DNA of 52,024 bases from IMG/VR virus record IMGVR_UViG_3300017913_001692, positions 1-52,024 of that record. The stretch is one strand, 5' to 3'. Made by a program: the position numbers and the translations under genes. The notes beneath the pieces are model-generated. The model was not told where the DNA came from, did no database searches, and saw only the letters and a list, made by a program, of their open reading frames with translations. Below are positions 27,829 to 44,883 of this stretch, one piece after another. Positions within the stretch are counted from its first letter, which is position 1, and every line of letters begins with the position of its first letter. Origin of the DNA: a virus (taxonomy: Duplodnaviria; Caudoviricetes).

Positions 27829-28409
27829 GCTACGAGCTTTATCAACATATCATGACATTCGAAAAGGCAATACCTGATGAAGTGTGTGACGACATAGTAG
27901 CACACTATAACATTCTAAAAGAAAGCAACCTTACACTCAGCAGACGTCAGATGCAAGACGGCACTGAACTAACAAAGAAAGATGAAACAGGCTTTGCACT
28001 AGAACCAGAAGCAATGAGACTAAGCAGTAACCAAAAGTTCCTGCATCCGTTCTTAGACGAGTTTTGGAATCTCTACAACATGTACCAAGATGCACATCCA
28101 CAAATAAAAAATCAACACGAAGTTTACTGTAGGTTCATGCGTATACAAGAAACACATCCAGGCGGCGGCTATCACATATGGCATCACGAAGCAGACACAC
28201 CTGATCATGCTAATCGTATCACAGCATGGGGCCTATATTTGAATGATGTAGAAGGTGGAGGCGAAACAGAATTTTTACATCAACACGTAAGGATACCTGC
28301 TGTAAAAGGCACAATGGTGATATGGCCTGCAGGCTTTACACATCCACACAGAGGCAATCCGCCACTGAGCGGCACCAAGTATCTATTGACAGGATGGACT
28401 GAATTCTAA
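27825..28409 (+). CDS. 2OG-Fe(II) oxygenase (prolyl-hydroxylase-like)
   Basis: GGGYHIWHHE, YLNDVEGGGETEF, WPAGFTHPHRG, KYLLTGW. Confidence 0.88.
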   Translation: MSYELYQHIMTFEKAIPDEVCDDIVAHYNILKESNLTLSRRQMQDGTELTKKDETGFALEPEAMRLSSNQKFLHPFLDEFWNLYNMYQDAHPQIKNQHEVYCRFMRIQETHPGGGYHIWHHEADTPDHANRITAWGLYLNDVEGGGETEFLHQHVRIPAVKGTMVIWPAGFTHPHRGNPPLSGTKYLLTGWTEF

Positions 28410-29887
28410 TGCTACTAGGAATGCGTGTTTGTGAACACGACACTAACTTTGCTCTATGGGACGGAGAACGTGTGCGCTATCACAAAACAGAACGCACACT
28501 CAAACAAAAACATCATGCCCAAGACAACCTATGGGAATGGCAAGAAACTATCAAACGTGTGTTTGGCATATACCCTGACCAACTCAAAGAAATAGCTATA
28601 GCAGTTGATCCGTGGAGACACAAACTGCCAACAGACGAAGAACAGTTCTTTCCTAGCAAACCTTTTCCTTACATAGACGCACCTTGTCCTGTTACTAGGG
28701 TCAATCATCATTGGGCTCATGCACTCAGCACATGGATGATACAACCTCAAACAGATGTACAGATTGTTATAGATGGCTTTGGTGATTATGATGTAGCATG
28801 GAGTGTGTTTCGCAACAATGAACTAGTAGACACAGGTTCAGTAGAACAAGATGGTAGCATAGGACATCTAATGTATTGGGCAGGCACACATCTAGGTGTT
28901 AAAGCGGACCATGCAGAAGATATAGCTGGCAAGCTCATGGGACTACAGAGCTACGGTAGATTGGACCAAACGTATTTAGAATACACTAGACGCTTTGGCA
29001 TGCGTGACCTACACGAACTGTTTGATCTACGCACATGGAACAAACACTTAGATTCAGACGTACTGGCAGGCTTGCGTTCAATTGACTGGATACGCACACT
29101 GCATGAACGTGTGGGAGAACTGTTGGTTGACTTTGTGGGCAAGTATGCACAGCCATATGAAAGCATCAGTTACACAGGTGGTGTAGCACAGAATGTGATA
29201 TGGAACACAGGCATACTACATGCGTTTCCACAGACTGTTATACCTCCACACTGTGCCGACGAAGGTTTGAGCCTAGGCTTGTTGGAGTTCCTACGACAGA
29301 AGCACAACCTAGCACCATTCACACTGCCCGATTTTCCTTATGTACAGACTGATGTAGCACCTGACTCGCAACCAAGCCTAGACACCATACGCAAGACAGC
29401 AGCCGCACTTGCAGACGGACGAGTTGTAGCATGGTACCAAGGCCGTGGAGAAGTTGGACCTAGAGCATTGGGCAACAGAAGCATACTGGCACATCCTGGG
29501 TTAGATCGCTCAAAGATAAACGCAATCAAACGCAGAGAAGGCTATCGTCCGTTCGGCGCAACCATACTAGAAGAACACAAAGACACATTCACAGGCTTGG
29601 TCAACAATCCCTACATGCTGAGTGTTGGACACACTGACAGCACAGACTATCCTGCTGTTACTCACGTAGACGGAACCTGTAGAGCACAAACACTGGGCAC
29701 AGAGAATCCTCTGTTCCGCAGGTTATTAGAAGAGTTTCATCGACTCACAGGCTTACCACTAGTGCTGAACACAAGCCTTAACCTAGCAGGCCAGCCAATT
29801 GCGGCTACACCTGAACAGGCACGTGAACTGTTTGAGACTACAGATATAGATGTACTTGTGATAGGTGATGAATATGAGACTGCCTGA
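28409..29887 (+). CDS. carbamoyltransferase (NodU/CmcH family), two-domain
   Basis: HD, HHWAH, DGFGD, GKLMGL, GGVAQN, E.GPRALGNRS, KRRE.YRPF, HVDGTCR.Q, LNTSLN. Confidence 0.9.
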   Translation: MLLGMRVCEHDTNFALWDGERVRYHKTERTLKQKHHAQDNLWEWQETIKRVFGIYPDQLKEIAIAVDPWRHKLPTDEEQFFPSKPFPYIDAPCPVTRVNHHWAHALSTWMIQPQTDVQIVIDGFGDYDVAWSVFRNNELVDTGSVEQDGSIGHLMYWAGTHLGVKADHAEDIAGKLMGLQSYGRLDQTYLEYTRRFGMRDLHELFDLRTWNKHLDSDVLAGLRSIDWIRTLHERVGELLVDFVGKYAQPYESISYTGGVAQNVIWNTGILHAFPQTVIPPHCADEGLSLGLLEFLRQKHNLAPFTLPDFPYVQTDVAPDSQPSLDTIRKTAAALADGRVVAWYQGRGEVGPRALGNRSILAHPGLDRSKINAIKRREGYRPFGATILEEHKDTFTGLVNNPYMLSVGHTDSTDYPAVTHVDGTCRAQTLGTENPLFRRLLEEFHRLTGLPLVLNTSLNLAGQPIAATPEQARELFETTDIDVLVIGDEYETA

Positions 29888-30452
29888 TTCAGACACACAC
29901 TTCCAAGATATCGAAACCTATCAACAGCGTCAATGGCAAGCAGGAGTTGATGCAACACAGGGACGCAGTGTAGCAGTTGACATAGGCGCACATGTGGGAT
30001 CGTTCACAGTTAGATACGCGGCTGTGTTTGATACTGTGATCGCTATAGAACCCGTAAACACAGAATATCTATTTGACAACATTGCACACCTAGGCAACGT
30101 GATAGTACAGCCTGTGGGCTGTTCAAACACACGCACAACTCTGTATGCACACAATCCTGCTCCAGGCAATTCAGGCGCATGGGAACTACACGCACAACCA
30201 CAGTATGAGTATGATGCACCCATCCGAGTAATACCACTGGACGACATAGAACTACACGCATGTGATCTAATCAAAGTGGACTGCCAAGGACACGAAACAC
30301 AAGTGGTAGAAGGTGCCCAAGCCACAATAGAAAGATTCCGTCCTACACTACAGCTAGAACTGCCAAGTGAACAGCTACAGAAACACCTAGAAGGTCTAGA
30401 CTACTACAGGGCAGTCACCGTAGGCAAGGACTGGATCTACACCAGCAGATAA
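29865..30452 (+). CDS. FkbM-family methyltransferase
   Basis: VDIGAHVG, IEP, DLIKVDCQGHE. Confidence 0.85.
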   Translation: MMNMRLPDSDTHFQDIETYQQRQWQAGVDATQGRSVAVDIGAHVGSFTVRYAAVFDTVIAIEPVNTEYLFDNIAHLGNVIVQPVGCSNTRTTLYAHNPAPGNSGAWELHAQPQYEYDAPIRVIPLDDIELHACDLIKVDCQGHETQVVEGAQATIERFRPTLQLELPSEQLQKHLEGLDYYRAVTVGKDWIYTSR

Positions 30453-30454
30453 CA

Positions 30455-30670
30455 GCGCGAAGCGCGGCCTGCGGCCAAAAAGCCGCTTGCGGTAAACGCG
30501 ATTTTTCAAGAGCTACGAAGTAGTTTGCGGTGCGGTTTTCTGCTGACTAGTACCAATGTACTAGACTGTAAGTCTTACTGTGTTTTGAGTGTATCGCCAT
30601 TGTACGCCTCTTGCAGTGCTACGCAATACACCTTAAACAGCATTTTATAAAAAGATGAGTCTTTTGACTC
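30455..30670. repeat. cluster of short inverted repeats and GNA-triloop mini-hairpins
   Basis: GCGC-GAA-GCGC, GGCC-TGC-GGCC, CCGC-TT-GCGG, CTAC-GAA-GTAG, CTAGTAC-CAAT-GTACTAG, AGACT-GTA-AGTCT, GAGTC-TTTT-GACTC. Confidence 0.75.
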
Positions 30671-30718
30671 CAATCGTTCGTTACACTCCGTGTACTCTAG
30701 CAACTGTAGTAGAGGGGT

Positions 30719-30961
30719 TCATATGCACTGTACAGTAAACTCTTTTGCATCTGACAATGCTAATACTGCTAGTGTGCGAGCCTGTTCTGATTCAAACACT
30801 AGTACACTAGCTGATGGCTGTGTTGTGTGTATACCGTATGTAGTTAACAGTTCTAGTGATGTAGCACATGTAACAGTTTCTTTGTAGGTTTGACTGATCC
30901 ATGCAGGAGCATGTTGCTTGCGTTGTGGATATACTAGCTTTAGCTTATATTCCGACAGCAT
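30719..30961 (-). CDS. hypothetical protein
   Basis: Overlaps the stop of the upstream ORF; start MLSEY. Confidence 0.5.
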   Translation of the reverse strand: MLSEYKLKLVYPQRKQHAPAWISQTYKETVTCATSLELLTTYGIHTTQPSASVLVFESEQARTLAVLALSDAKEFTVQCI

Positions 30962-31142
30962 GATTCTGCTCGCTGGTAACATCCTTGCATACTAGTGCCA
31001 TGTAACTATACAGCGGATGAGTAACATCTAACCAAAAGCGTGTACGGTTAACATGATACTCACACGGTATTGAATGACTGCGCAGCAATGTTATTACTGT
31101 GGCGAACTGTGGGTCCTTAGTGTAGATAGCAAGATGTCGCAT
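30945..31142 (-). CDS. hypothetical protein
   Basis: TAAATA motif just upstream of the ATG. Confidence 0.6.
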   Translation of the reverse strand: MRHLAIYTKDPQFATVITLLRSHSIPCEYHVNRTRFWLDVTHPLYSYMALVCKDVTSEQNHAVGI

Positions 31143-31421
31143 ACAGTATTTACACTGTGCGCACACACTGTTGCCCGAAATGGGTCCTACACCCAAAAAA
31201 TCTGTCGCGCGGATTTTTTTAGGGAAGTACTTACAGATTCGTGGTGGTGATTTTGCATCGGTGGATTTTTTTAGGCTTAAGGGCTAATTTTAGTTAATGT
31301 TTACAAACACTTATACGCCCCATGCCCCGAGAAAAATTTTTTTATTTTTATTTCTCTCAAGAGAAAAGGTACAAATTTCTTTGTACCTCTCTCCGTCCTT
31401 TCGGTTGTTGCTAGACTTTTA

Positions 31422-31745
31422 TTAGTCTAGTCTTGAACCTGCGTATGCTGTAATGCCATGTGAGTTAAGCACAGCTGCTGCTGCACGAGCACCAGCTTCT
31501 AGTGTGTCCACATTCTGTGTTCCGTACTTTGAAGGATTCCACAGTTGGAAACCTGTACGCCAATGCTTGCTTACACCTGCTGCTTTCAGCGCACGACCTA
31601 GCTTGGTGTTACCCTTTACTGGGATGTCTACCCAAGCAAAGCCACACGCACCCCAACCACCGTTGGGGAAGTATTCGTTCTCAAAGTCGTCTGCTGCTTT
31701 GTATGCTGCTTCTTGTGCTTCTTGGATGATTGCTGTAATGTTCAT
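31422..31745 (-). CDS. small early protein (CGFAWV motif)
   Basis: Own promoter and GAGGGCAAC leader. Confidence 0.85.
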   Translation of the reverse strand: MNITAIIQEAQEAAYKAADDFENEYFPNGGWGACGFAWVDIPVKGNTKLGRALKAAGVSKHWRTGFQLWNPSKYGTQNVDTLEAGARAAAAVLNSHGITAYAGSRLD

Positions 31746-31811
31746 GTTGCCCTCGTGTTGTTTTGTTTAACTTACTCTTATATACTACTGTCAAAGTGTG
31801 TGTAGGTCAAC

Positions 31812-32141
31812 CTAAAATGGTTGCCTACATTCGATCTTATCAGCAGGCTCAAAGCCCACTGCCGCACACTTGTAGAGTGTGCCGTCTACTAGGAAGTGAT
31901 CGCCCATTGCACTTGAACGGTGACCCCATTCGTTGCCCTGCTCGTCTACGTGAAGAGGTTCAACAACAGTTACACGATCGTTGCCATCTGCTGGCATGTT
32001 CTTTGACCAGCTGTCCATGATGTTCTGTGTCCAACGGTAAGCATATTCACATGCTTCCTCGTATACTGCACACGGTGTGTCCACTGTTGCAATGTGTACT
32101 GGTGTCTCTTCAAACGCTGTGTGGTAAACTTTAACTTGCAT
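31812..32141 (-). CDS. small early protein
   Basis: Own promoter and GAGGGC leader; RSSAMGD motif. Confidence 0.82.
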   Translation of the reverse strand: MQVKVYHTAFEETPVHIATVDTPCAVYEEACEYAYRWTQNIMDSWSKNMPADGNDRVTVVEPLHVDEQGNEWGHRSSAMGDHFLVDGTLYKCAAVGFEPADKIECRQPF

Positions 32142-32212
32142 ATTGCCCTCGCTTTGTTAGTTTATATATAGATAATAACTTCATAATAAGGAGAAGTCAA
32201 CCTTTTTTGGAT

Positions 32213-32333
32213 AAAAAAATGCCCGGGGAGAGCTACATGAGGGCGGTGAGCTCAATCCCCGGGCCAAGTGCAGAAGAGCGTGAGGGCTTACGTCTTCTGC
32301 GAGATCACTGCGAGCGTTGAGGGCGTTAACGCT
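32213..32333 (-). ncRNA. three tandem hairpins with GCCCUC loops ending in an intrinsic terminator (candidate 3'UTR-derived sRNA)
   Basis: Stems AGCGTT/AACGCT, GCAGAAGA/TCTTCTGC, GCCCGGGGA/TCCCCGGGC; U7 tract follows on the - strand. Confidence 0.6.
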
Positions 32334-33327
32334 TCATCACAGTGTTCTCAGCCATAGCTTCCCACTTAGCAGGAAATGCTTTGGCCAAGTCGGCAACCTT
32401 CAGTACTGTTCTTAGCGACAGCTCACGAAGCCTTGCCTTATTAATGTCCACGAAATCGATGATGTCCTGGACAATATCGTCTGAGAACATATACTCTGTG
32501 AGCATGCCGTCTCTGACGATCTGTTTGATACGGAGCATCTTCTCTCGCTCGGTATCAATCGTTAAGTCCACGTAGTGGCATCTACTCTCTAGTGCCATAA
32601 GGTGCTCTCGGATCTTGCCTTTGGCTTTGTCAAATTTAAGGTTAGTGATAAAGATAGCACTGCCCTTAAATTCAAATGAATCCGGTACACCTTCGTTACG
32701 CAACTTGAACGAATCTGTGTTCCAATGTATACGTCTTGTCTTCTTGGAATCTAACGCCGCTTTGAGGATGTTCAAGCTCAGCTCATCGCTGAAGATTGAA
32801 TCACAGTCATCGAACACGATAACGTTATCCTTGTCTGCGTACTTGTATAGCTTGACGTAGAGTCCAATAGCACTCATAGCACCTTTGACTACCTCATACT
32901 TGGCAGGTCTGTCGCCAAGTTGCGCAATCAAGTCATGCTTGCCTAGTACTTTTTCTACACCAAACGATTTACCAACACCTGGAGGTCCTGATACGATCAT
33001 AGCTCGCACATCACCTTTCTTGGTAGCGCGAGTCATGTCCTCCAACATGTCAAATCTCTCACGTAGCCTTTCGATAACTTCTTCGTCCGACTCTTCACGC
33101 ACATGTACTTCTGAACCTGTGGTCTTGTACGCATTCTCGCTTGAGACTGAAATCTTAATATTACGATCTGGGAAGCCTGCTACACTCTTGCCATCTACTG
33201 TTACGTAGCCGCCCTTGGCTCCTACTTTAAAATGTTCTACTAGAGGGAACACCATACCTGCGAGGTCTACGTCTTTGCCTCTGATCTTGTATGTGCCTTC
33301 TAGTATTTCGATATTGCCCTGTTTCAT
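32326..33327 (-). CDS. AAA+/P-loop ATPase
   Basis: GPPGVGKS Walker A, IVFDDCD Walker B, FITN sensor, ALESR Arg finger; start MKQGN after AAGGGCAAC. Confidence 0.88.
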   Translation of the reverse strand: MKQGNIEILEGTYKIRGKDVDLAGMVFPLVEHFKVGAKGGYVTVDGKSVAGFPDRNIKISVSSENAYKTTGSEVHVREESDEEVIERLRERFDMLEDMTRATKKGDVRAMIVSGPPGVGKSFGVEKVLGKHDLIAQLGDRPAKYEVVKGAMSAIGLYVKLYKYADKDNVIVFDDCDSIFSDELSLNILKAALDSKKTRRIHWNTDSFKLRNEGVPDSFEFKGSAIFITNLKFDKAKGKIREHLMALESRCHYVDLTIDTEREKMLRIKQIVRDGMLTEYMFSDDIVQDIIDFVDINKARLRELSLRTVLKVADLAKAFPAKWEAMAENTVMKR

Positions 33328-33409
33328 AAAGTTGCCCTTCTGTTTTGTTAACTTACTCTTATACATTACTATCTTATGCCCTCAATGTCAACCTCTTTGT
33401 TACCAAAAT

Positions 33410-33467
33410 GTTACGGGGGAATCCTATTCCTGGATGAGGGCGTCCTTGGAGGACTCTACCCCGTAAC
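33410..33467 (-). ncRNA. hairpin with a CGCCCUCA loop directly 3' of tRNA-Leu
   Basis: GTTACGGGG/CCCCGTAAC outer stem with a GGA/TCC inner stem. Confidence 0.55.
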
Positions 33468-33468
33468 T

Positions 33469-33554
33469 TGGTACTCGCGGCCGGACTCGAACCGGCACGG
33501 CCTAAGGCCTACGGATTTTAAGTCCGTTATGTCTACCTATTCCATCACGCGAGC
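33469..33554 (-). tRNA. tRNA-Leu(TAA)
   Basis: GCTCGCGTGATGGAATAGGTAGACA..ACGGA-CTTAAAA-TCCGT, long variable arm, GTTCGAGTC, encoded CCA. Confidence 0.95.
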
Positions 33555-33557
33555 GAT

Positions 33558-33634
<77 letters not shown>

Positions 33635-33635
33635 T

Positions 33636-33712
33636 TGGTAGGCCGTACAGGACTCGAACCTGTAACCGACGGATTATGAGTCCGGCGCTCTAACCAATTG
33701 AGCTAACGGCCC
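33636..33712 (-). tRNA. tRNA with CAT anticodon (probably Ile2/lysidine type, or elongator Met)
   Basis: GGGCCGTTAGCTCAATTGGTTAGAGC, CTCATAA loop, GTTCGAGTC, CCA; lacks the initiator GGG/CCC anticodon stem. Confidence 0.9.
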
Positions 33713-33722
33713 TGAGTGCTGA

Positions 33723-34019
33723 CTATGCCTCCTCCAACATCTTATTTTCTATTTCGGATTTGATCTCACGGCAGTTTCTAACTACGAACTCGTAGATGGC
33801 TCCCTGCTGGTCCTCTGATTGGAACTTCTCGTGATTCATTAAGATCTGGCAGACCTCTGCCTTTGTAAACTCTCCGCCAAGCTCGATCAGCTCAACGTTC
33901 TCGTGACCGTTCTTGAAAAGGATCTTCAATCGGCTTACGAAGTCGTTAGCGAATCGCACCTTTGTGATGCCATTCAATGTTGATGTGCCTGCTACGGAAT
34001 ATGTTTTAGTTGTTGCCAT
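33723..34019 (-). CDS. small early protein, upstream of and probably co-transcribed with the tRNAs
   Basis: Own promoter and GGAGGGCAAC leader. Confidence 0.82.
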   Translation of the reverse strand: MATTKTYSVAGTSTLNGITKVRFANDFVSRLKILFKNGHENVELIELGGEFTKAEVCQILMNHEKFQSEDQQGAIYEFVVRNCREIKSEIENKMLEEA

Positions 34020-34091
34020 GTTGCCCTCCAGCGTTTAGCGTTTATTGTCTTTACAGTATATGACCAATTGAATCAAAGGTCAACCTCTTTT

Positions 34092-34271
34092 TTACCAATT
34101 TTCTCTAATTAGTAATACAGCCCCAATCGCGAACACGCTAAGACCGCCACCTGCGATCAGAAGCATTGTTCCTAGATCGTTACCTGGACCACAAGCACCA
34201 TCACAGTCGCCGCCAGCGCCTGCCATTGCTATGATCCCTACCATTACTAAAATTGAACCTAATATTTGCAT
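34092..34271 (-). CDS. small two-TM membrane protein (59 aa, GDCDGAC loop)
   Basis: Hand-translated; own promoter and GGAGGGC leader. Confidence 0.7.
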   Translation of the reverse strand: MQILGSILVMVGIIAMAGAGGDCDGACGPGNDLGTMLLIAGGGLSVFAIGAVLLIRENW

Positions 34272-34352
34272 TTGTTTGCCCTCCTAATTATGTTTATACT
34301 ATAGCACCAGCTACTGTATAAGTCAACCCCTAATTTACCGCAAGATCATTGA

Positions 34353-34541
34353 CTAATTTAAGTCTGCTTGCCAATAAGTTCCGTCGAATTCAGCTCGCAA
34401 AGCCCCTAGAGGGAAGTCTGTGTGTTCGAACAGGATATATGGCGCCGAAGTCCACTGGCAGATCTCCTGCGTGTGGATGTTAACCTCGCTCAGTGGAATG
34501 AACCGTTCGCCTTCTTGCCCTGTGGTAAAGATTCTAATCAT
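34353..34541 (-). CDS. small early protein
   Basis: Own promoter and GAGGGC leader. Confidence 0.72.
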   Translation of the reverse strand: MIRIFTTGQEGERFIPLSEVNIHTQEICQWTSAPYILFEHTDFPLGALRAEFDGTYWQADLN

Positions 34542-34770
34542 TGTGCGGCCCTCTTCATAAAATTAAATTCTAATTGCAGCTTAGACTCTTTTACAACCTG
34601 TGTCAACCCCTTTTTAGAATAAAGTTTAGGTGGATTGAACATCCGGCGATTGTTGAGACGACTAATTTTTATTTTGCTACGAATGATTTGCATTTTGCCC
34701 TCTTTTGCAATTTATATGTACACTGTAGCACAGGTGCGCTACAGTGTCAACCTTTTTTTTAAGTTTTGCA

Positions 34771-34962
34771 TTATGTTTGCCACCCTACTACGTTTCCGTT
34801 TTGCACACTAACAGTACATTTTTGTGTAGTGCCTTTGTAGTGCAAGTTTGCATAGTAATAGCAAACGTCTCCGTCTGCGTCCTTAACTTTATTGTAAAAG
34901 TTAAAGTTTGTAAAAACGGCATTGCCGTCACGCAGTAGTTTTTTGTTGCAAAGTGTAAGCAT
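34771..34962 (-). CDS. small early protein inside the GA-free island
   Basis: TTGCAC/TATAGT promoter and GGAGGGC leader. Confidence 0.7.
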   Translation of the reverse strand: MLTLCNKKLLRDGNAVFTNFNFYNKVKDADGDVCYYYANLHYKGTTQKCTVSVQNGNVVGWQT

Positions 34963-35040
34963 ATAAGCCCTCCATATGCTTGTTTAGTTTATAGTTACAC
35001 TATAGCACACAATGCGCTATAGTGCAACCATTTTTTTTTG

Positions 35041-35400
35041 CTATGCAACACGCTTTTTTTGCTGTGCGTTTACAATGCGTTTGCGCTGTAGTGCAACATA
35101 ACGCTCCCACTGTGCTGTTGTTATGTTTAGTATGTAACATGCATTTTCATGCAAGCACTCACATACATACGTATCCATGTGTGTGCTTTCAAGCAAATAC
35201 TGTACAAATGCAAACTTGCTTTTGCGTTTTGTATTATAACGCAATAGTGCAGCTATGCAATCTGCATTATCACGCATAAGTGCTTGTGTTTGTTGCATAA
35301 ATTCCGGCTGCATTAGCTGTTGCAAGTTGTTGTTGCTGTTAAGCGTGTATTGTGTTACAAGTGCGTTAATTGCTTGCTGTACAGTTACATTGTTTTGCAT
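35041..35400 (-). CDS. early protein inside the GA-free island (Q/N/A-rich)
   Basis: TTGCTT/TATAAC promoter; 119 aa ORF. Confidence 0.7.
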   Translation of the reverse strand: MQNNVTVQQAINALVTQYTLNSNNNLQQLMQPEFMQQTQALMRDNADCIAALLRYNTKRKSKFAFVQYLLESTHMDTYVCECLHENACYILNITTAQWERYVALQRKRIVNAQQKKRVA

Positions 35401-35575
35401 GTTTTGCTTCCGCTGTGTTGTTTTAACGTTGTTTTAGTTATAGCAAACAAACGCACACAAAGCAAGTAAAAAATGGCAGCAAATATCTAACAAAAACAAA
35501 CACTTATAAAATAATTTTTTTTTATTTTTTTTGCTAACCTCTTGAAAACATTGGATTCTTTTTTCGCCTCAGAGG

Positions 35576-35604
35576 TTGACATTTAGACAGTTCTCAGTTA
35601 TAGT
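35576..35604 (+). promoter_or_regulatory. early-type promoter on the + strand with no downstream ORF
   Basis: TTGACA-17-TATAGT followed by ATAAGAACAATAAGGGCA, the same leader start as several - strand cassettes. Confidence 0.8.
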
Positions 35605-35741
35605 ATAAGAACAATAAGGGCAACGAAGGAGGGAAAACACTACATAAGGCGAGATGCCAAAAAGCCGGGAACGTAATCCAAAAGGTTGATACCGGAGTTC
35701 AATACACTCCCGATGCCTGCAATTCCGTTGAGGGAATAGTC

Positions 35742-35778
35742 AAAAAAAGAGGGAGGCCTTTCTACGAGGGCGCCTCCC
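35742..35778 (-). terminator. intrinsic terminator hairpin with GCCCUC in the loop
   Basis: GGGAGGC/GCCTCCC stem followed by a U7 tract on the - strand. Confidence 0.7.
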
Positions 35779-35857
35779 AAGTCTCCCGCCTGAACTCGTA
35801 TGTAGGGGTCAGGCCTAACCACGTTTTTACTCGTTCCCTTTTGTGGGAGGTCAGTGC

Positions 35858-36112
35858 CTATTCATAGCACTCACCAAAGTCCTCCCACTCTTGTTCCCAA
35901 GAAGGTTGACCGTCGTCTTCGTCCTCCTCCTCGTCAAAATCCTCGTCCATGAACCGCGAACTCAATTCGTTCGCATCCAGCATGTCGGCCACGTCATCGG
36001 TCGACATATACTTCAGAGCCATCGTGGCCAATTGCTCCCACGATACTGTGCCATTCTCGGCCAACTCATATGCCTCATCCCGGCTGTTCGGTGTGTGTCT
36101 GTAAATGCTCAT
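35858..36112 (-). CDS. small acidic early protein
   Basis: Own promoter and GAGGGC leader; acidic DGQP..EQEW.DF tail. Confidence 0.82.
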   Translation of the reverse strand: MSIYRHTPNSRDEAYELAENGTVSWEQLATMALKYMSTDDVADMLDANELSSRFMDEDFDEEEDEDDGQPSWEQEWEDFGECYE

Positions 36113-36181
36113 CTTGCCCTCTTTCTGTTGTCTAACTATACCTTACTATAGCACCTCTCCTGGTGCAGGTCAACCCCTAGT

Positions 36182-36502
36182 TTACCGTTTTCGATAGGTT
36201 CGCGGATCAACGTGCTTGGCCGACTCCATCTGATACTCACGATAGTCCTCTGAGTCGTCAGCCATCTCGGCCAACCATTCATCGTAGGTTGTGTAGTGGC
36301 AGGGGAACTCCTTCCAGCCAATACCATTGTCGAGTGCGATCGCACCCACGAACGCAACCGCGTCCTGGATACGGTCCAAGCCGTCCACGACATATGTGTC
36401 GCCTCCCTTGAACTTCCAATAAGCGGCCCCATCGGAGAACTTACCGCTCTCGCTATGTGCGCCATAATTTTCAAGAACCTGTGTGTGAACTACGAATTGC
36501 AT
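36182..36502 (-). CDS. small early protein (TQ..ENYGAH / WKFKGG motifs)
   Basis: Own promoter and GAGGGC leader. Confidence 0.85.
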   Translation of the reverse strand: MQFVVHTQVLENYGAHSESGKFSDGAAYWKFKGGDTYVVDGLDRIQDAVAFVGAIALDNGIGWKEFPCHYTTYDEWLAEMADDSEDYREYQMESAKHVDPRTYRKR

Positions 36503-36564
36503 AATTTTGCCCTCTCTAATGCGTTATTGTCTCTACAGTATAAGACCTCTCTAGAGTAAAGTCA

Positions 36565-37264
36565 ACAGAAAAATGCACGAGATCTCGAAAGAACTTACCA
36601 AAAAATGCCAGAACAAAAAGAACCCTTATATATCAATGACTTAGCCACCAAACGAACAAAAGACCCCTGATCTGCTGCAGCGTGAGAGTGACTCTGAAGA
36701 TACACCAAGGAAAAAATCCAATGATTTCAAAGAGTTAGCCTAGCAGCTATGTGTTGAAACCCCTCTTGAACCTCTAGTGAGTCTATTGAGTGTAGTGAGT
36801 GCAGAGTCCCAAGAGTGGATGCAGAGTGTTGACTGTGACTGTGTAGTGTTGAACCATAATGAGGCCCCTGCTGGCCAGATTTTTCTCAATGATTTCAAAC
36901 ACTTACAGAGGCCCCTGCGGGGCCGAATTTTGGGCGAACTCTCTCTTGACACGGTGCTAAACCACCATTTAAACGTGGTTTAAGGGCCCTATATGGGGTG
37001 TTAAATGGTGGTGTGGTGTGAATAAACCATAGATTTCTACACTCGATCTACGGTCTCTATAGCATAAAAATTTTTTCTTGACCGTGGTGACGAGAGGTAT
37101 AGTTCAAATACTCTGCACACTCTCTCGCCACAGTTCTCGCCACACTCGTCCGACTCTATCTACGGAAGTCTTTGGACCGTTAGTTTGAGCTCTAAACGAG
37201 TTAGGTCACATAGCAGCGGGGCCTACGGTGGACCACCCGACTAGCAGCGGGGCCTTACGCTATT
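36565..37264. other. structured non-coding block (IHF-like boxes, inverted and direct repeats)
   Basis: TATCAATGACTTA at 36631; near matches at 36725 and 36893; ACCACCATTTAA/TTAAATGGTGGT IR; TCTCGCCACA x2; TAGCAGCGGGGCCT x2. Confidence 0.7.
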
Positions 37265-37444
37265 CTAGTCTACACAAGGATTCATGCTCAACAGTCGCTC
37301 GCGTTTAAGCATATCTAACACAATACCTAACTCACTAGTCGCTTTTGAGATGATCATAGTGTTTTCTTCACTAGCATTCTTGCTCAGCTCTTCGTTCAGT
37401 TGATCTATGCGGATTTCAATGTATTTTATCGTCTTTGTCGTCAT
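37265..37444 (-). CDS. hypothetical protein (59 aa)
   Basis: Hand-translated ORF overlapping the end of the upstream gene. Confidence 0.5.
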   Translation of the reverse strand: MTTKTIKYIEIRIDQLNEELSKNASEENTMIISKATSELGIVLDMLKRERLLSMNPCVD

Positions 37445-37709
37445 TAGATATAACCCTTAATTTTGGCTTACGGACCGCAGGCTCTTCGAGCTCTTCGTCT
37501 TTTACTGTGACCGTGATGGTTCCGTCTTCATGCTCTTTGATATACATTTCGTGGGTTTCGATCGCAAATAGGTCAGCCATATCAAGCAGTAGGTTCTGGA
37601 GTTCTTGCTCTACGTCTTGATCATACTGTAGGTCAACAACCCTTTGCGCCATTGCTAGGACTGATTCAACAAGTTCGCGATCCGCATCATCTAGTTCGTA
37701 TTTGGCCAT
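37416..37709 (-). CDS. hypothetical acidic protein
   Basis: TGATG coupling with the upstream ORF. Confidence 0.75.
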   Translation of the reverse strand: MAKYELDDADRELVESVLAMAQRVVDLQYDQDVEQELQNLLLDMADLFAIETHEMYIKEHEDGTITVTVKDEELEEPAVRKPKLRVISNDDKDDKIH

Positions 37710-37918
37710 CAGTCACGTTCCGGAAGAAAGTCTACAAGCACCTGGGTGGGAACCTGTTTGAGCAGTTCTTCAATCGCAGTGACATCACCTTTGGCCACAT
37801 CTTCTTGTATCTGATCCAACACACGATCTATGAGTGAATCGTGCTTCTGAGTGGCCACTACGCCGTTTCCGACGTAGATGCCTGTGTTCCAATCTGGAGT
37901 CACTTGGGGAGTTTTCAT
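37709..37918 (-). CDS. hypothetical protein
   Basis: ATGA coupling; GDVTAIEELL. Confidence 0.75.
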   Translation of the reverse strand: MKTPQVTPDWNTGIYVGNGVVATQKHDSLIDRVLDQIQEDVAKGDVTAIEELLKQVPTQVLVDFLPERD

Positions 37919-38490
37919 TGTTCTGTTACCTCTTCTTCATCATCTAATAGGTATTCTCTTGCTTCAACTAGATCCAACTCTGCATCTAGTTTCTGGAATA
38001 ACTCTGGGGTATCTTCTAAGGCGCAAGTGCCTTTGAGCACCGCAAGACTCCATTCGTTTACGCCGTCCATGCAGTCGTCTCCGCCGTTAACATATATCCC
38101 TGCGAAATCCATACCGCCTTCTTCGTATGTGGCAGTGAGATCACAGTTATCGTTGGCATCCAACCATGTGTTGTAAGCATCAATAGGTGGAGACCATGCA
38201 CTATCAAACCAACCTACGATAGCGGCTGTGCCGTCACCATTGTCCTGGAATTCTAGTCCTTCATCTGAGATGTCCCACTTGGTACCCCAATTGTTCACAC
38301 GCCACTGATACCAGTCCATGCTTCCGTCCGGGCTTGGGCTGGTGGTGCCTTCAAGCTCTTGTGGCATAGGAACCATTGCGTTCAGCAGTCCGAACTCACC
38401 GTCTTGTGAGGTCTTTGCTTCTTCCCAAAGAGTTTTGATTGTCTCTGTAGGACCTTGGATAGTTATCGAATTATTGCACCAATTTGGCAT
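37915..38490 (-). CDS. DUF1281/YubB-like protein
   Basis: MPNWCNN, WYQWRVNNWGTKWD, FDSAWSPP, YEEGGMDFAG. Confidence 0.78.
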   Translation of the reverse strand: MPNWCNNSITIQGPTETIKTLWEEAKTSQDGEFGLLNAMVPMPQELEGTTSPSPDGSMDWYQWRVNNWGTKWDISDEGLEFQDNGDGTAAIVGWFDSAWSPPIDAYNTWLDANDNCDLTATYEEGGMDFAGIYVNGGDDCMDGVNEWSLAVLKGTCALEDTPELFQKLDAELDLVEAREYLLDDEEEVTEQ

Positions 38491-38584
38491 ATTGCCCTCC
38501 TTCTGTTAGTGTCTGTGCCCTTATTGTTCTTATACTATAACATCACCAGGGGCATATTGCAACCCCTGATGATGCCAATAACGA

Positions 38585-38863
38585 TTACTTCACATTCAAA
38601 CTGACACCAGCCATTTTGAACGCTTCGACCATCTTGGCCTTCTTTGCAAGGCCTTCCGTCTTCGGTAAGTCAAGCTCTACATCACTCACACGAATGTCTT
38701 TGATGTCTGCACGATAAAGAGCATCATAGATAGGTGCTCTGTGTCCTGCCTTGTAGCCGGTGATTCCGTCTACATGAACTTGATTAGCATCTCTGTGATC
38801 ACCTCTAAGTGATACAAAGAATTTTCCGTTGATTTCGATAGTTTGAAGATTATATTGTCCCAT
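38585..38863 (-). CDS. small early protein
   Basis: Own promoter; AGGAGG RBS before MGQYN. Confidence 0.72.
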   Translation of the reverse strand: MGQYNLQTIEINGKFFVSLRGDHRDANQVHVDGITGYKAGHRAPIYDALYRADIKDIRVSDVELDLPKTEGLAKKAKMVEAFKMAGVSLNVK

Positions 38864-38949
38864 TGTGGACCTCCTGTCTGTTTCTTCGTTATTCAATAAA
38901 GCCCTTGTGCCTTATTGTTCTTACAGTATACGATCTATCTAGACAAAAG

Positions 38950-39246
38950 TCAACTAGAATTGGCTAACTGAATCGTCTGGAGTTTGATCATGATCCCTGT
39001 GACGTCTTCAGGTGTGAGATAGGGGATCACGTCATCTACCACATCGTCCTCGTTCTCTGGTGTCCTATGGATGCCTGGTAATTGCACGAAGTTTAGATCC
39101 TTGTCAAATACAGCCGCTTCATAGAAGTTCTTTTGAGGTTCTTTGATCACACTCAATTGATAGTCACCAAAGCCGTATCTGCTTCTTTCGATCTTGTCTT
39201 CGGCGTATGATCTAAACACTAGGTCGTCAAATGTTACTTTTCTCAT
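38950..39246 (-). CDS. hypothetical protein
   Basis: GAGG RBS; DDVIPYLT motif. Confidence 0.75.
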   Translation of the reverse strand: MRKVTFDDLVFRSYAEDKIERSRYGFGDYQLSVIKEPQKNFYEAAVFDKDLNFVQLPGIHRTPENEDDVVDDVIPYLTPEDVTGIMIKLQTIQLANSS

Positions 39247-39322
39247 TTCGGATCCTCATTGTTCCACATGATAAGCATACCTACAGGTATCGCTATGATT
39301 ATGATGCTCAGTATCAAACCTT

Positions 39323-39523
39323 CTAGCATCCACTACCTCTGTTTCCAGGATCAAAGATGTCTTTGATGCAGTTCGACGCATCTTCTTTGACTCCTGCGGT
39401 TGTGATCTTACTCACGTTCATCGCGGTGTTCACGCCTCTTATGATGTCTTTTCCACTCAGTGTGGTCACACCACAGCCAGAGGTCATCACCGCAATCACA
39501 GCCAATAAGATCGCTCGCTTCAT
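39323..39523 (-). CDS. putative lipoprotein
   Basis: MKRAILLAVIAVMTSG-C lipobox-like signal. Confidence 0.65.
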   Translation of the reverse strand: MKRAILLAVIAVMTSGCGVTTLSGKDIIRGVNTAMNVSKITTAGVKEDASNCIKDIFDPGNRGSGC

Positions 39524-39696
39524 CCTAGCTCTCTCCATTCGTCATAGGTAAGATAGGTGTCCGTGTCCGGATCATAATAACTACCTTCCTTGGGATCGTA
39601 ATAGACCACCTTGTTGGCCATGGTCTGAAAAGGACCTTCAAGTCCTTCTCGTGCCGTGTATCTTTCGGGGATAGGTTCTAGGATGGTGTAGCCCAT
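39520..39696 (-). CDS. small protein (GLEGPF...YYDPKEGSYYD)
   Basis: Hand-translated 58 aa ORF coupled to neighbours; GGAGG RBS. Confidence 0.72.
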   Translation of the reverse strand: MGYTILEPIPERYTAREGLEGPFQTMANKVVYYDPKEGSYYDPDTDTYLTYDEWRELG

Positions 39697-39893
39697 TAAA
39701 CTTCCTCCACTGTGACCATATATGTTTTGCCGTTGCGGTCAGTGACGCTCATGGTCTTTTTGGTTGAAAGGAAATATCCTTCTGTTGGATGCAGATCCAT
39801 GTTGATCGGACCTGCCTTTGAAATAAGACCGTATTCATCTTTGGGCAGAGCCTCTTTGATGATTGCGGCAATTCTATCACAGTATGCTAACAT
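39696..39893 (-). CDS. hypothetical protein
   Basis: GGAGG RBS; operon-coupled. Confidence 0.75.
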   Translation of the reverse strand: MLAYCDRIAAIIKEALPKDEYGLISKAGPINMDLHPTEGYFLSTKKTMSVTDRNGKTYMVTVEEV

Positions 39894-40193
39894 CTAAACC
39901 TCCATGCTCGCTTTGAAATCGTTCTGCATACCTTGCTCAGTAAAGCCAAGGTCTGCAATGCCGGTGAACTCTTGTGCAGCCTTTTCAAAGGCTGAGTCTG
40001 TATAGACGTCCCATGTGCTGTCGTGATCAACAGTAACATGACCAATCATCGCACCTGGATGATCAGCACCAACTTCGTTGTAATCATCATCGAGATAGTA
40101 GTCAATGTTGAAACCGCTAATGGTTACGGAACGACCTTTTTCTGCACCCCAGAAACCGTCGCCGTTAAGTGTAAAAGTAAGTGATTTTGACAT
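39894..40193 (-). CDS. small early protein
   Basis: Own promoter; GGAGGGC leader before MSKSL. Confidence 0.8.
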   Translation of the reverse strand: MSKSLTFTLNGDGFWGAEKGRSVTISGFNIDYYLDDDYNEVGADHPGAMIGHVTVDHDSTWDVYTDSAFEKAAQEFTGIADLGFTEQGMQNDFKASMEV

Positions 40194-40268
40194 ATAGCCC
40201 TCCATGTCGTTGTTTCTAATTATGTTACTAATATAACACCACATAGAGTAAAGGTCAACCTATTTTGG

Positions 40269-40517
40269 TTAACATATATGACCTTGGATTGTGCCTGACC
40301 CATCTTTTAGATAGTAGCCATGACGTTTAGGATCGCCTTCTTTGTGCCAATGATGTTCTGCGATCTCTTCGTATAATTCTTCTGCTCTGTCGGAGCAACT
40401 CAGCACGATTTCACCGTCTGTAAAGCCCTTAGAGCCGTCGTAGTCCTTGGGAGTGTAGTCAAAGGGTATAAGTGTCGTCTGCCCTGTGAATAATAATACT
40501 ATTAACCAACCTTTCAT
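40269..40517 (-). CDS. putative exported protein
   Basis: Hydrophobic N-terminus; AGGA RBS. Confidence 0.68.
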   Translation of the reverse strand: MKGWLIVLLFTGQTTLIPFDYTPKDYDGSKGFTDGEIVLSCSDRAEELYEEIAEHHWHKEGDPKRHGYYLKDGSGTIQGHIC

Positions 40518-40523
40518 ACAATC

Positions 40524-40772
40524 CTAAAAGCACCTACATGAGTAGGCTTCAATAGAACATACCTCAACACCATCTGGAATGATCTGTGGTTCGTATCCTG
40601 GGCAAGCAGAGAATGGATCACCTAGCACGAAGTTACCTTTTTTGGCTTCTTCCACAGCCTTGCTCATCAGGACAATAGCCTTGTCTAATTTTTGTTCTGT
40701 AGGGCTAGGCTCAGCCATTGCAGTTCCAAAGGTGATACAGATGCCTGCGATCATCGCGATACAATTATTCAT
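40524..40772 (-). CDS. putative exported Cys-containing protein
   Basis: Signal peptide ending AMA; Cys cluster at the C-terminus. Confidence 0.62.
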   Translation of the reverse strand: MNNCIAMIAGICITFGTAMAEPSPTEQKLDKAIVLMSKAVEEAKKGNFVLGDPFSACPGYEPQIIPDGVEVCSIEAYSCRCF

Positions 40773-41040
40773 TGGCTTCTACCCAATCCACAGTATCGAT
40801 GTCCCAGATGTCGTCGAATGATACGACAAAATCTTTCTTGCTCTTTTCATCTTTGAGCTTGACCAATCGAGTGTTCATGTCTCTTGCCTCTAGCACGCCA
40901 AACCCTTCATAGGTGCCTACACCTTTCAAAGGCTGATCCGAAAGGTTAGGAGCCGGACGACCTAGATCGTCGAGCATCGTTTGGACCTTAAATTTGCAGG
41001 CATATGAATTGCCTGGCACCACATCCTCTATCTTAATCAT
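40765..41040 (-). CDS. hypothetical protein
   Basis: AGGAG RBS. Confidence 0.78.
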   Translation of the reverse strand: MIKIEDVVPGNSYACKFKVQTMLDDLGRPAPNLSDQPLKGVGTYEGFGVLEARDMNTRLVKLKDEKSKKDFVVSFDDIWDIDTVDWVEANE

Positions 41041-41173
41041 TCTGTCATCTCCTTGACAATACTAGCACCTTGATTGATGCTATCTTTACCCATATCCATC
41101 ATGCCATCAATATCTCCGGGATTAAGGTATAGGTAACAAGCGGCCGCACCTAGTGCGAAAAATATAATCGCTC

Positions 41174-41398
41174 TCATTTTAACCATCCTTTCTTTAATCT
41201 TTCAATCATAGCCTCTGCATCAGGGTATCTTTCCATCAAATCAATCTGTTCATCGATCGAAGCGATACGATCCAGTTCTTTTTGTGTCGTTTGGTCGACA
41301 CGTTCTTTTGGTGTATCGAACAAGCCAAACCCTTGCATTTCTACATAGGGCTGGGTCCATGACCAATCATAACTCCATTTGCCGTTAGGTTTACTCAT
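41174..41398 (-). CDS. hypothetical protein
   Basis: ATGA coupling with the upstream ORF. Confidence 0.7.
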   Translation of the reverse strand: MSKPNGKWSYDWSWTQPYVEMQGFGLFDTPKERVDQTTQKELDRIASIDEQIDLMERYPDAEAMIERLKKGWLK

Positions 41399-41619
41399 GC
41401 CATTGCTCCTTCTACTTGGGCCACCACTGCCTTAGAATGTTTGCAATAGCCATGATAACCAAAGCCCATGCAATCACATTCAAAGCCTTTGTCTGTCAGT
41501 TCGACAGAATATTCGTTGCCTTTTGAGCCTTTCATAGGCCAGACAATGCCTACCATCCAATGATCCTTAGGATCAAAGGACTTGGGCTTCAAATACTTCT
41601 TCTGGAATTTCCGGCTCAT
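41395..41619 (-). CDS. SWIM zinc-finger protein
   Basis: GSKGNEYSV...CDC..F....CKH (CxCx(n)CxH). Confidence 0.78.
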   Translation of the reverse strand: MSRKFQKKYLKPKSFDPKDHWMVGIVWPMKGSKGNEYSVELTDKGFECDCMGFGYHGYCKHSKAVVAQVEGAMA

Positions 41620-41739
41620 ATTCTTCCTCTTCGTTTTGAACTCTATCAAAGATATCCACCTGGTGAATACCGTGAGCTCTGATAAAAACATCTCTGCTCA
41701 TCCATGCGGCATCTTCTTCCATGCCCAAGATCCAATCAC

Positions 41740-41940
41740 TTACTCTTCCCATATTACCCTCTGTCCTTTGAAATTTTTGTAAATCTCAGCCACCCTATAA
41801 TTGTATTGGGCTTCATTACGGCTGAGGTTCCTAAGATGCATCTCCCAGATAGCTCTAGTATCATCTGGCAAATCTGACTTCAAGAGCCTCGCTATCGAAT
41901 CCGCTCTTTGAAACTGTCGTTCTTCTGAATAAGGACCCAT
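41740..41940 (-). CDS. hypothetical protein
   Basis: AGGAG RBS before MGPYS. Confidence 0.7.
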   Translation of the reverse strand: MGPYSEERQFQRADSIARLLKSDLPDDTRAIWEMHLRNLSRNEAQYNYRVAEIYKNFKGQRVIWEE

Positions 41941-42230
41941 TATGCGATCTCCTTGATATGGGTCAGCATTGTTGCCGGCACTCGCCATTGTTGACCGCCG
42001 ATATGTGCTGTCACTACCACATACTTTCTGTTGACCTTTTTCACAGTGGCATTCACTTTGCCGCCTGTCTTAGAACTTGTAAATTGAACCATGTCGCCAA
42101 CCATAAAATTGCGAACAGCCTGACGTGATAGATACTGTCGCTTGAGCTTGATAGCCTCAACGACTTGACTCAGCTCGTCGTTGTCCATTTGATAGATTGC
42201 TTCTACCGCCTTCGTAACATTATTTGACAT
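41940..42230 (-). CDS. small early protein (SH3/KOW-like C-terminus)
   Basis: Own promoter; VGDMVQF..V.KVNRK..V..WRVP. Confidence 0.8.
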   Translation of the reverse strand: MSNNVTKAVEAIYQMDNDELSQVVEAIKLKRQYLSRQAVRNFMVGDMVQFTSSKTGGKVNATVKKVNRKYVVVTAHIGGQQWRVPATMLTHIKEIA

Positions 42231-42295
42231 ATTGCACCTCTGTTGTTTTGTCCTCATTGTCTATACAGTATATGACCAACAAGACATAAAGTCAA

Positions 42296-42487
42296 CTAGT
42301 TTTGGTAATCATTCCATTTGAGAATTTCGATCTCACCCTTGTCGTCTTTCTTGTATTTCAAGAAACCTTGTGCGATCAAACTGTCAATGGTCTTACCAAT
42401 TGACTTTTCTGCTATCTGTGGGCCAAGCCACCATAGGGTAAAGAAGGTGCCGCTAAGATAAGCGACACCCATCCATAGATAATCCAT
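42296..42487 (-). CDS. small membrane-anchored protein
   Basis: N-terminal TM segment; TAATG coupling. Confidence 0.72.
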   Translation of the reverse strand: MDYLWMGVAYLSGTFFTLWWLGPQIAEKSIGKTIDSLIAQGFLKYKKDDKGEIEILKWNDYQN

Positions 42488-42939
42488 TATGCTTCGTCCC
42501 AACCCATGTTCTTCATAACTTCTTGTGATTGAGCTTGCTCAACATAGTCGAACAGTGGAAAGCCACCTTGCTCTTTACCGTGGTCGTTTACGATCCAACC
42601 ATTGTCTGTGTAAAGATATGCATATTCTTCCATGTCTGCAATCCAACTTGGAATGTCATCATATTCGGAGATGTGCAGTTCTTCACCACGATCTCTGTGG
42701 TATGCGATTGTGATTTCATCCGCAGGTGTTTCAAAACTATGACCTGCTGTCTGTGAATTTAGATTAGGCTTGAGTGCCGAAATAGAACCTAGTTCGACGA
42801 GTGCAACCGCACGGTCGAATGAATTATAGTGTCGCTTGAGCATCTCACCATTGTGCTCTGGGTAACCATCCCAATGACAATATACTGAACGGATCTTTCC
42901 TTCTGGTGTTTTGTAAGCGATGTTTGAACGTGTAGCCAT
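42487..42939 (-). CDS. phage early protein (TRS.I / YCHWDGY motif)
   Basis: Own promoter and GGAGGGC leader. Confidence 0.85.
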   Translation of the reverse strand: MATRSNIAYKTPEGKIRSVYCHWDGYPEHNGEMLKRHYNSFDRAVALVELGSISALKPNLNSQTAGHSFETPADEITIAYHRDRGEELHISEYDDIPSWIADMEEYAYLYTDNGWIVNDHGKEQGGFPLFDYVEQAQSQEVMKNMGWDEA

Positions 42940-43023
42940 TTGTTGGAGCCCTCCTTAGGCAGTTTTGTGTTTCATTGTTCTTATACTATAATGTCGGTTG
43001 ACGCAAAGGTCAACCACATTTGG

Positions 43024-43197
43024 TTAAGTAGGACAAGGATAGTCAAACAATTCTGCTTGACGTTCTAAGTCCTCTTCAGCAGTCTTGAACCTTGACTTAT
43101 ATTTGCCAATCAGGAATTCAAGATGAGCTTCACGCGATACTGTGTCGAGTGCCTCGAGCATTTCGAGATCTTCGATCATTTCGATAAGGTCGTTCAT
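43024..43197 (-). CDS. hypothetical protein (57 aa)
   Basis: Hand-translated; TAATG coupling; GGAGG RBS. Confidence 0.65.
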   Translation of the reverse strand: MNDLIEMIEDLEMLEALDTVSREAHLEFLIGKYKSRFKTAEEDLERQAELFDYPCPT

Positions 43198-43427
43198 TAT
43201 AGGTCCTCCTGTTCTCTACCTTGTGCGAAGTCCTGCAAGTCAGCAGCCAATGCCGCCGCTTGAGCTCTAGTCAATTGAAGTGAATCAAAAAACTTATCTG
43301 CAGGTCCTCTGTTTTCTGTAGGGTCAAATCTTTTCTGAGTGACTTGAACACATGACCCTCGATCTTTGCCACCAAAGAATCTTGTTAATGAAACGCCTTT
43401 TGCGTGTGATTGTAATTCTGTTGACAT
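43197..43427 (-). CDS. small early protein
   Basis: Own promoter; LTRFFGGKDRG motif. Confidence 0.8.
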   Translation of the reverse strand: MSTELQSHAKGVSLTRFFGGKDRGSCVQVTQKRFDPTENRGPADKFFDSLQLTRAQAAALAADLQDFAQGREQEDL

Positions 43428-43490
43428 AACCTACCCTCCTTATTGTCTTTACAGTATATTCTCAGTCTGCTGAGAAGTCAACTGAAATGG

Positions 43491-43700
43491 TTAACTAATG
43501 TTCCACTTCAGTTGGACCTTGCCCTTCTGTAAGCATTCTTTGAAATACTCAAGATATTCCACTGTTCGGCCCTCTTCGATCATTTTATCGATATTTCGGA
43601 CCATGTTATTTTCTGCCTCACCGAAGTTGAAAAACATTTGACCGGTTTCATCTTCAACGGTGAGTTTCTTGTGTTTCCAATCGTCATAAAAATAAGCCAT
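43491..43700 (-). CDS. hypothetical protein
   Basis: AGGAGG RBS. Confidence 0.75.
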   Translation of the reverse strand: MAYFYDDWKHKKLTVEDETGQMFFNFGEAENNMVRNIDKMIEEGRTVEYLEYFKECLQKGKVQLKWNIS

Positions 43701-43709
43701 ATTTCCTCC

Positions 43710-44039: not shown

Positions 44040-44085
44040 AATTCCCTCTGTCTGTTGCCCTTATTGTCCTCTTAATATAATGTCT

Positions 44086-44870: not shown

Positions 44871-44883
44871 GATAAATACTTAT

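Follow-up and report, generated by a model that had tools for sequence, protein, structure and literature searches.

A block of gene cassettes nearly free of template-strand GA and GG in uncultured jumbo phages, and its possible relation to a predicted deazaguanine modification

Introduction

A short run of genes may bear on how heavily modified phage DNA first becomes readable for the host RNA polymerase; it lies within the 52,024-nucleotide stretch of viral DNA analysed here (IMG/VR record IMGVR_UViG_3300017913_001692, positions 1 to 52,024; the window). The window comes from an uncultured jumbo phage, at 15% completeness, and encodes a recombinase, helicases, a primase, a DnaE-type polymerase, enzymes acting on sugar nucleotides, tRNAs and a series of small genes, each behind a promoter of its own. 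Its relatives are up to 357 kb long, and the group is probably aquatic, since TARA occurs in the names of some of the relatives' records. Among the sugar-nucleotide genes, a xanthine/uracil-type permease and two carbamoyltransferase genes are found (11968-13263, 22553-23515 and 28409-29887). In the following, GR denotes GA plus GG and YC denotes TC plus CC, and for the window's island the + strand is the predicted template and the - strand the sense strand.

The island in the window

Between 34687 and 35543, the template strand contains no GA and four GG, besides 20 TC and 21 CC, and the sense strand holds no TC and four CC (dinucleotide counts). GA starts at 34685 and again at 35544, leaving an 859-base gap, compared to 152 bases for the next-longest GA gap in the window. 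The initial annotation had reported the GA-free segment with its GG and TC counts, all of which were exact, and 2000 mononucleotide shuffles gave a mean of 38.8 GA (sd 4.8, minimum 18). Its claim of strong local selection is likewise supported, against amino-acid composition as the cause: resampling codons with the protein held fixed (5000 rounds) predicts 10.1 ± 2.8 sense-strand TC (minimum 1) in the 119-aa open reading frame (ORF) instead of the observed 0. For the 63-aa ORF, 0 TC versus 3.9 ± 1.7 (minimum 0) is alone not significant. The proposed rule had to be widened, as GA is indeed absent while the banned words are GA plus GG, not GA alone.

As had been noted, the bias runs across two genes and their spacers; three sigma70-type promoters and two ORFs, all on the - strand, lie inside the island. 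The features referred to below are:

35576..35850, + strand: divergent promoter (TTGACA/TATAGT) and non-coding stretch, GA/TC content normal
35437..35465, - strand: first promoter, sigma70-type, -35 TTGCTT (35465-35460), -10 TATAAC
35041..35400, - strand: 119-aa ORF without known family; four close homologs at 88-93% identity
34999..35027, - strand: second promoter, -35 TTGCAC (35027-35022), -10 TATAGT; a 9-base inverted repeat separates the two
34771..34962, - strand: 63-aa ORF without known family
34722..34750, - strand: third promoter, -35 TTGACA (34750-34745), -10 TACAGT
32326..33712, - strand: conserved gene for an AAA ATPase, plus three tRNA genes, downstream of the island; anchor for finding relatives
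39894..40244, - strand: internal control gene outside the island, 22 TC/CC per 348 bases

An ATG at 34693 follows the third promoter, and the island stops just past it. Over the 47 bases preceding the predicted start of the first promoter, the sense strand has neither GA nor GG. The remaining promoters at 30-45 kb carry TTGAC in 12 of 14 cases; against these, the deviating boxes TTGCAC and TTGCTT highlighted in the initial annotation are present, although the third island promoter has TTGACA. Inverted repeats lie between -35 and -10 of two island promoters (34999-35026 and 34722-34744), and the ribosome-site word GAGGGC is common to many early cassettes in the region 30000-45000.

Neither island protein matched a family in Pfam, PHROGs or NCBIfam or gave a usable atlas match, and a direct search for them in viral or metagenome contigs returned no loci. 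Both ORFs, initially put forward as candidate anti-defence factors, belong to small families recurring in the islands of relatives. The family of the 63-aa ORF is present in 7 of 31 compared islands and in a second YC-free block of locus L024, and the 119-aa ORF, whose four close homologs all sit on short contigs, shares the words D-N-x6-L and D-T-x-V-x-E-C with a family from other islands in an 18-25% alignment.

At the upstream edge, where an IHF-like site had been proposed, a word which we take to be IHF-like from its consensus is indeed located (35535..35547, - strand). Three further, presumably IHF-like words follow upstream at 36631, 36725 and 36893; the region 36631-36905 containing them is a long gene-poor stretch, and words we read in the same way occur in relatives. 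The non-coding part of 35576-35850, about 240 bases long, folds into hairpins; no Rfam family matched this stretch, and 35741-35922 is 74% like locus L342.

Occurrence among relatives

Using the neighbouring ATPase as anchor, 160 loci were retrieved, 107 of them distinct. Close relatives were defined as distinct loci with an identity of at least 70% and at least 5 kb of upstream DNA. Equivalent islands in related phages, a check suggested at the outset, do occur: a block lacking sense-strand TC and CC is present in 13 of 17 distinct close relatives, and neither an absence from relatives nor a chimera was found. Among the other four, weaker blocks are seen in L333 (358 bases) and L307 (poor on both strands), and none in L016 and L018. 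Below 70% identity, 3 of 15 loci carry such a block. In each of four long carrier records the island occupies a single place, the gaps measuring 650-2000 bases, and the complete record G004 has no island. The window's ATPase is placed among the island carriers in a quick tree, which was used for placement only and for which rows were picked as clear positives or long negatives.

In total, 31 blocks of 456-3567 bases were compared, encoding 112 proteins in about 42 small families; no family is common to every island, the most widespread being present in 10 of 31. The island of L024 is split (381-1844 and 3403-4169), and in L313, L369, L023 and L044 the island lies downstream instead of upstream of the ATPase gene.

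Strand bias, codon choice and promoters

When the 31 islands were pooled (42,116 bases), the template strand was found to contain 104 GA and 102 GG versus 1824 and 1423 expected from the flanks, i.e., a retention of 5.7 and 7.2%, figures which are partly given by construction, as the islands were picked on low TC/CC. On the sense strand, 0.72 of the expected GA and 0.62 of the expected GG are retained. At synonymous sense-strand positions, G is used at 0.18 before a purine versus 0.41 before a pyrimidine inside islands, compared to 0.41 versus 0.45 outside. Hence, GR is avoided on both strands, and far more strictly on the template. Third-position C following a pyrimidine is encountered in 30 of 1501 cases inside islands and in 2026 of 4555 outside; inside, serine TCN codons give way to AGY, ACC and GCC mostly to ACA and GCA, and a purine takes the place before C. 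Residue usage shifts as well, with proline decreasing from 2.9 to 0.3% and glycine from 6.6 to 3.9%, and Asp and Glu staying nearly constant.

The islands cover whole promoter-gene cassettes, their borders coincide with cassette borders, and neighbouring cassettes with the same promoter type outside have normal GR. Mostly, the ban begins upstream of the first -35 box, before the first transcript: the 47 bases before the predicted start are free of TC/CC in 9 of 14 first island promoters versus 22 of 143 promoters outside, three other first promoters have one TC/CC site, and L031, with three, is a clear exception. A -35 box of type TTGCxx instead of TTGACx is found in 16 of 47 island promoters versus 6 of 143 outside. 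The family of the control gene at 39894-40244 has 22 TC/CC in the window and 13 in L052, versus 0-2 in six island homologs, and for three families, this one included, the in-island and outside counts are 0-2 vs 22, 1-2 vs 19 and 4 vs 18. Since the same family obeys the rule inside and breaks it outside, the rule follows cassette position, not gene identity.

Predicted deazaguanine pathway in relatives

Among five long relatives, FolE was found in four, a QueE-like protein in four (with matches under the curated cut-offs) and QueD in two; the preQ0 transporter YhhQ occurs in one of the five, G001, and QueC scored above cut-off in none of them. A protein with the signature LxxxHRHxF, which is that of DpdL (PMC10516641), is present whole in three and cut in one. 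The genes form an operon of FolE, a QueE-like radical SAM protein, the DpdL-signature protein, a glycosyltransferase-like protein and a DpdA-like protein of 485-519 aa in which TGT motifs occur; the QueD gene lies elsewhere. The DpdA-like gene is carried by three of the five (G001, G003 and G004); G002 ends just before the gene's place and G005 is 44% complete. Each long island record with enough coverage carries the pathway. No pathway gene is located on the window's own 52-kb contig (15% complete), whose proteins share 53-58% identity with those of the pathway carriers; under the reading favoured below, the window phage would carry the same genes. The pathway was missed by the Pfam TGT, QueC and NF041059 profiles and located through the word DSGGF; of 423 protein clusters from relatives and 110 confined to G004, the Pfam scan covered about 290, all from the first set.

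The DpdA-like proteins of all three carriers share the motif set DSGGF / D / QG / HFLG / D, which aligns by eye with the DpdA proteins of phages CAjan and iggy at an HMM score that is not significant. The Pfam TGT and NF041059 profiles and PDB sequence searches gave no match to this protein. By structure, the top 50 PDB matches of a model with pLDDT 64 are all TGT or DpdA, including 7ui4 (E 1e-6 to 5e-5, TM-scores 0.28-0.37); a single-sequence fold (pLDDT 33) was useless. In the atlas, the protein falls into a TGT-like cluster (0.93), with PF01702 on 17% of the members. The glycosyltransferase label of the 351-367-aa operon gene is a weak one, with a Pfam E of 0.08 in one of three homologs and no PDB match. 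The genes for the DpdA-like, DpdL-motif and glycosyltransferase-like proteins are found close together in G001 (L110:16156-19492 and L111:19-780), G004 (L092:10515-14533) and phage PA5oct (L148:8998-12143), and in phage Phosso DpdL, glycosyltransferase-like and FolE genes are adjacent. Clustering of the three genes could point to a sugar-modified deazaguanine; the combination of FolE, QueD, QueE and DpdL without QueC has been proposed, not proven, to yield plain 7-deazaguanine (PMC10516641). As for other modifications, C5-methyltransferase PF00145 was found in 0 of 5 long relatives, one of them a complete record, with a positive control that responded; PF12851 (TET/JBP) was likewise found in 0 of 5, with a positive control that did not respond.

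G004 contains the whole operon and the promoter array and has no island. No gene separating it from the carriers was found, nor another short-word desert in G004 that would account for the missing island. Three proteins seemingly restricted to island carriers were checked by tblastn and found in G004 as well.

Cultured phages as controls

The measured DpdA motif is GA in iggy (PMC10484667) and GA and GGC in CAjan (PMC7544227). In iggy, the most depleted 500-base window over all dinucleotide measures is that for GA+TC, near the record end; positions 59,900-60,626 (L153:29900-30626; 727 bases) contain 5 GA versus 45.5 expected and 12 TC versus 43.6, with GG and CC above expectation. This GA/TC-poor, GG/CC-normal stretch matches the measured GA-only motif. 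The window scores of iggy and PA5oct are both z -5.5, and that of GAP32, which has no DpdA, is not far off at z -4.8. GAP32, XacN1 and RaK2, related jumbo phages without FolE and a DpdA-like gene, have no GR/YC gap above 159 bases. CAjan, Vibrio 2.275.O and Phosso carry DpdA or a homolog, yet no long desert. Hence, considering these three and G004, having the pathway does not entail having an island. Stretches of low complexity, about 500-600 bases long and without TT and several other dinucleotides, occur in G005 (58,957-59,559) and Phosso (215,716-216,229).

The closest cultured relative found is PA5oct, a Pseudomonas jumbo phage (Wroclawvirus) to which 94 G004 proteins match and which has been listed with a deazaguanine system (PMC7824862). 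Its DpdA-like gp168 (37% identity) adjoins gp167 and gp166, homologs of the DpdL-motif and glycosyltransferase-like genes, and it has short GR/YC-poor blocks at L167:7250-7560, L155:7620-7900 and L165:19310-19500, the one preceding the tRNA genes harbouring two TTGCAA/TATAAT promoters. In contrast to the islands, these blocks span 190-330 bases, affect both strands and are mostly non-coding, and there is no kilobase island. PA5oct is transcribed by the host RNA polymerase, on which it depends, and small genes located in the terminal repeat are expressed early (PMC7318152).

Discussion

We favour, with moderate confidence, the reading that the block escapes the phage's own predicted modification of G at GR and thereby stays legible to host RNA polymerase. 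The predicted DpdA-like enzyme, whose motif would be GR, would swap G in GA and GG for a 7-deazaguanine derivative, and modified G in the template would hinder the host sigma70 RNA polymerase, slowing or blocking it. In cassettes that presumably must be read first, GR would have been removed nearly fully from the predicted template and partly from the sense strand, where it would survive as Asp, Glu and Gly codons and ribosome sites require it; template GR could be avoided by choosing Ser AGY and Phe TTT, by giving up proline and in similar ways. The remaining early cassettes would be read later, either on newly copied DNA or after the island products have acted.

When G with a bulky 7-substituent was assayed in vitro, it blocked the two RNA polymerases examined, the bacterial one included, with G of the -35 box being important; the bulky groups interfered with initiation rather than elongation, and plain 7-deazaguanine, to which the gene set of the relatives points, was tolerated (PMC4838386). 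An effect at the initiation stage agrees with the TTGC promoters but does not account for the ban within gene bodies; for the latter, the base would have to be bulkier, or something else would have to read the template strand. Besides this gene-body ban, G004 without island and the lack of the operon on the window's contig are the main gaps in the favoured reading; the normal GR of neighbouring cassettes with the same promoter type also counts against it, as do the DpdA carriers without a long desert and the score of GAP32. A more specific version, in which GA and GG carry a bulky, perhaps sugar-linked 7-deazaguanine made by a new DpdA subfamily and the glycosyltransferase-like protein, is speculative; here, the template would stop host RNA polymerase, and the island would be a strand-aware start-up block, the sole part readable before the phage lifts the block.

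If the escape from self-modification is real, a large group of uncultured jumbo phages rewrites one gene block, giving up -35 consensus and proline for it, and the enzyme's motif (GR) can be predicted from the desert. Under the bulky-base version, deserts would reveal motifs of unknown DNA-modifying enzymes from sequence alone. The roughly 42 island protein families would be candidates for first-acting phage functions, and PA5oct, as a cultured relative, puts the reading within experimental reach.

Alternatively, the same GR modification could leave the island free for another job, which we consider unlikely: lying next to an origin or packaging site, the block would have to stay unmodified so that primers or R-loops can form, replication can start or the DNA can enter. 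The single island in each of the four long carriers would suit such a site, and at least seven contigs whose first base falls within a YC-free block or at its border are suggestive only, as strain variation also breaks contigs. Clusters which we take to be DnaA-box-like lie within about 2 kb of the island or array start in G001, G002, G005 and G004, and presumably IHF-like words flank the island. Tandem TGTGGATAA words, to our reading DnaA-box-like, are situated just upstream of the early promoter array, whether an island is present or not (L011:3440-3700, L021:200-260, L016:280-380 and G004 10-12 kb). The window, however, has no DnaA-like cluster at its island, borders track promoter-gene cassettes, and whether the rule applies depends on where a cassette lies. 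Moreover, the poor blocks of PA5oct, at 27.5, 239 and 267 kb, are away from its genome ends (for the ends, see PMC7318152).

The strict ban can equally be written as YC on the non-template strand, and the sequence alone cannot assign it to G or C. As the non-template strand is displaced in transcription, a host or phage enzyme (deaminase, nuclease or ADP-ribosyltransferase) might attack TC/CC there during first transcription until neutralised by island proteins. This is still less probable, since promoter DNA is covered too, with -35 boxes altered at sense-strand GA, and no protein family recurs in all islands. A motif shared by distant lineages would also be easier to explain by a core enzyme of the phages than by host defences, which vary. 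Deamination is excluded as a mutational cause, a TC-specific deaminase having been among the selective agents initially proposed: TT stands at 1.30 but CT at 0.85, giving no CT gain to match the TC/CC loss, serine moved to AGY, and purines precede C. Avoidance of UV dimers was considered as well and rejected, given that TT is enriched on both counts (AA 1.49, TT 1.30).

A rule at the RNA level, by which a nuclease or modifier acting at UC/CC spares island transcripts, is very unlikely. Island mRNAs would indeed be without UC, CC and nearly all Pro codons, but depletion begins upstream of the predicted start in the 9 of 14 first promoters (vs 22 of 143 controls) mentioned above, and the GA-directed CmdT, which acts on mRNA (10.1101/2024.02.24.581662), would find GA retained at 0.72.

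Highly improbable is the avoidance of restriction palindromes or of DarT-type TNTC sites on first-entering DNA, both of which the initial annotation had put forward. GATC, TCGA, GGCC and CTAG are absent from the window's island, its - strand is without TNTC, and first-injected DNA is known to lose restriction sites (PMC12455610). Yet most 4-base palindromes are kept or enriched (TGCA 20 times), eight TNTC remain on the + strand, CC/GG are banned too, and a strict one-stranded loss of all GA and GG goes far beyond what site avoidance needs. An assembly chimera or compositional accident, as the few close homologs of the 119-aa protein on short contigs might suggest, has a negligible probability: it is refuted by recurrence of the block at the same place, with the same genes on either side, in relatives, the ATPase groups with carriers, and shuffles and codon resampling fail to reproduce the island.

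Comparison with known systems

Phage DpdA systems are the nearest known parallel. Relatives of the window phage share with them FolE, QueD, QueE, the DpdL-motif protein and a TGT-fold enzyme, and GA/GG overlaps their measured motifs; in contrast, the enzyme here, at 485-519 aa, falls outside Pfam TGT and NF041059, and its motif is a predicted one. The available text of three papers on these systems (PMC10484667, PMC7544227 and PMC10516641) describes no motif-free island, and no description of a modification-motif-free island was found in a literature search that covered few subscription papers. A related thought was voiced in the accessible part of PMC6884629, according to which such bases might block sigma factors and promoters are AT-rich; the idea was set aside there. 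What is added here are the clade-wide count, the template-strand bias, the comparison of genes inside and outside, the operon and named positive and negative controls.

In phage defence, CmdTAC resembles the island rule in being GA-directed and differs from it in targeting mRNA. The system in PMC12783734 concerns, in the part available, a GC motif and does not fit a GR island.

Avoidance of restriction sites is a feature of the leading regions of T7 and T5. Loss of such sites in first-injected DNA has also been documented for Murciavirus (PMC12455610), and these regions resemble the islands in being short and early, under a local sequence ban and equipped with variable small genes. In contrast, the island ban concerns two dinucleotides, is strand-biased and overrides -35 boxes and amino-acid choice, and, unlike the restriction-site-free regions, it likely answers the phage's own enzyme.
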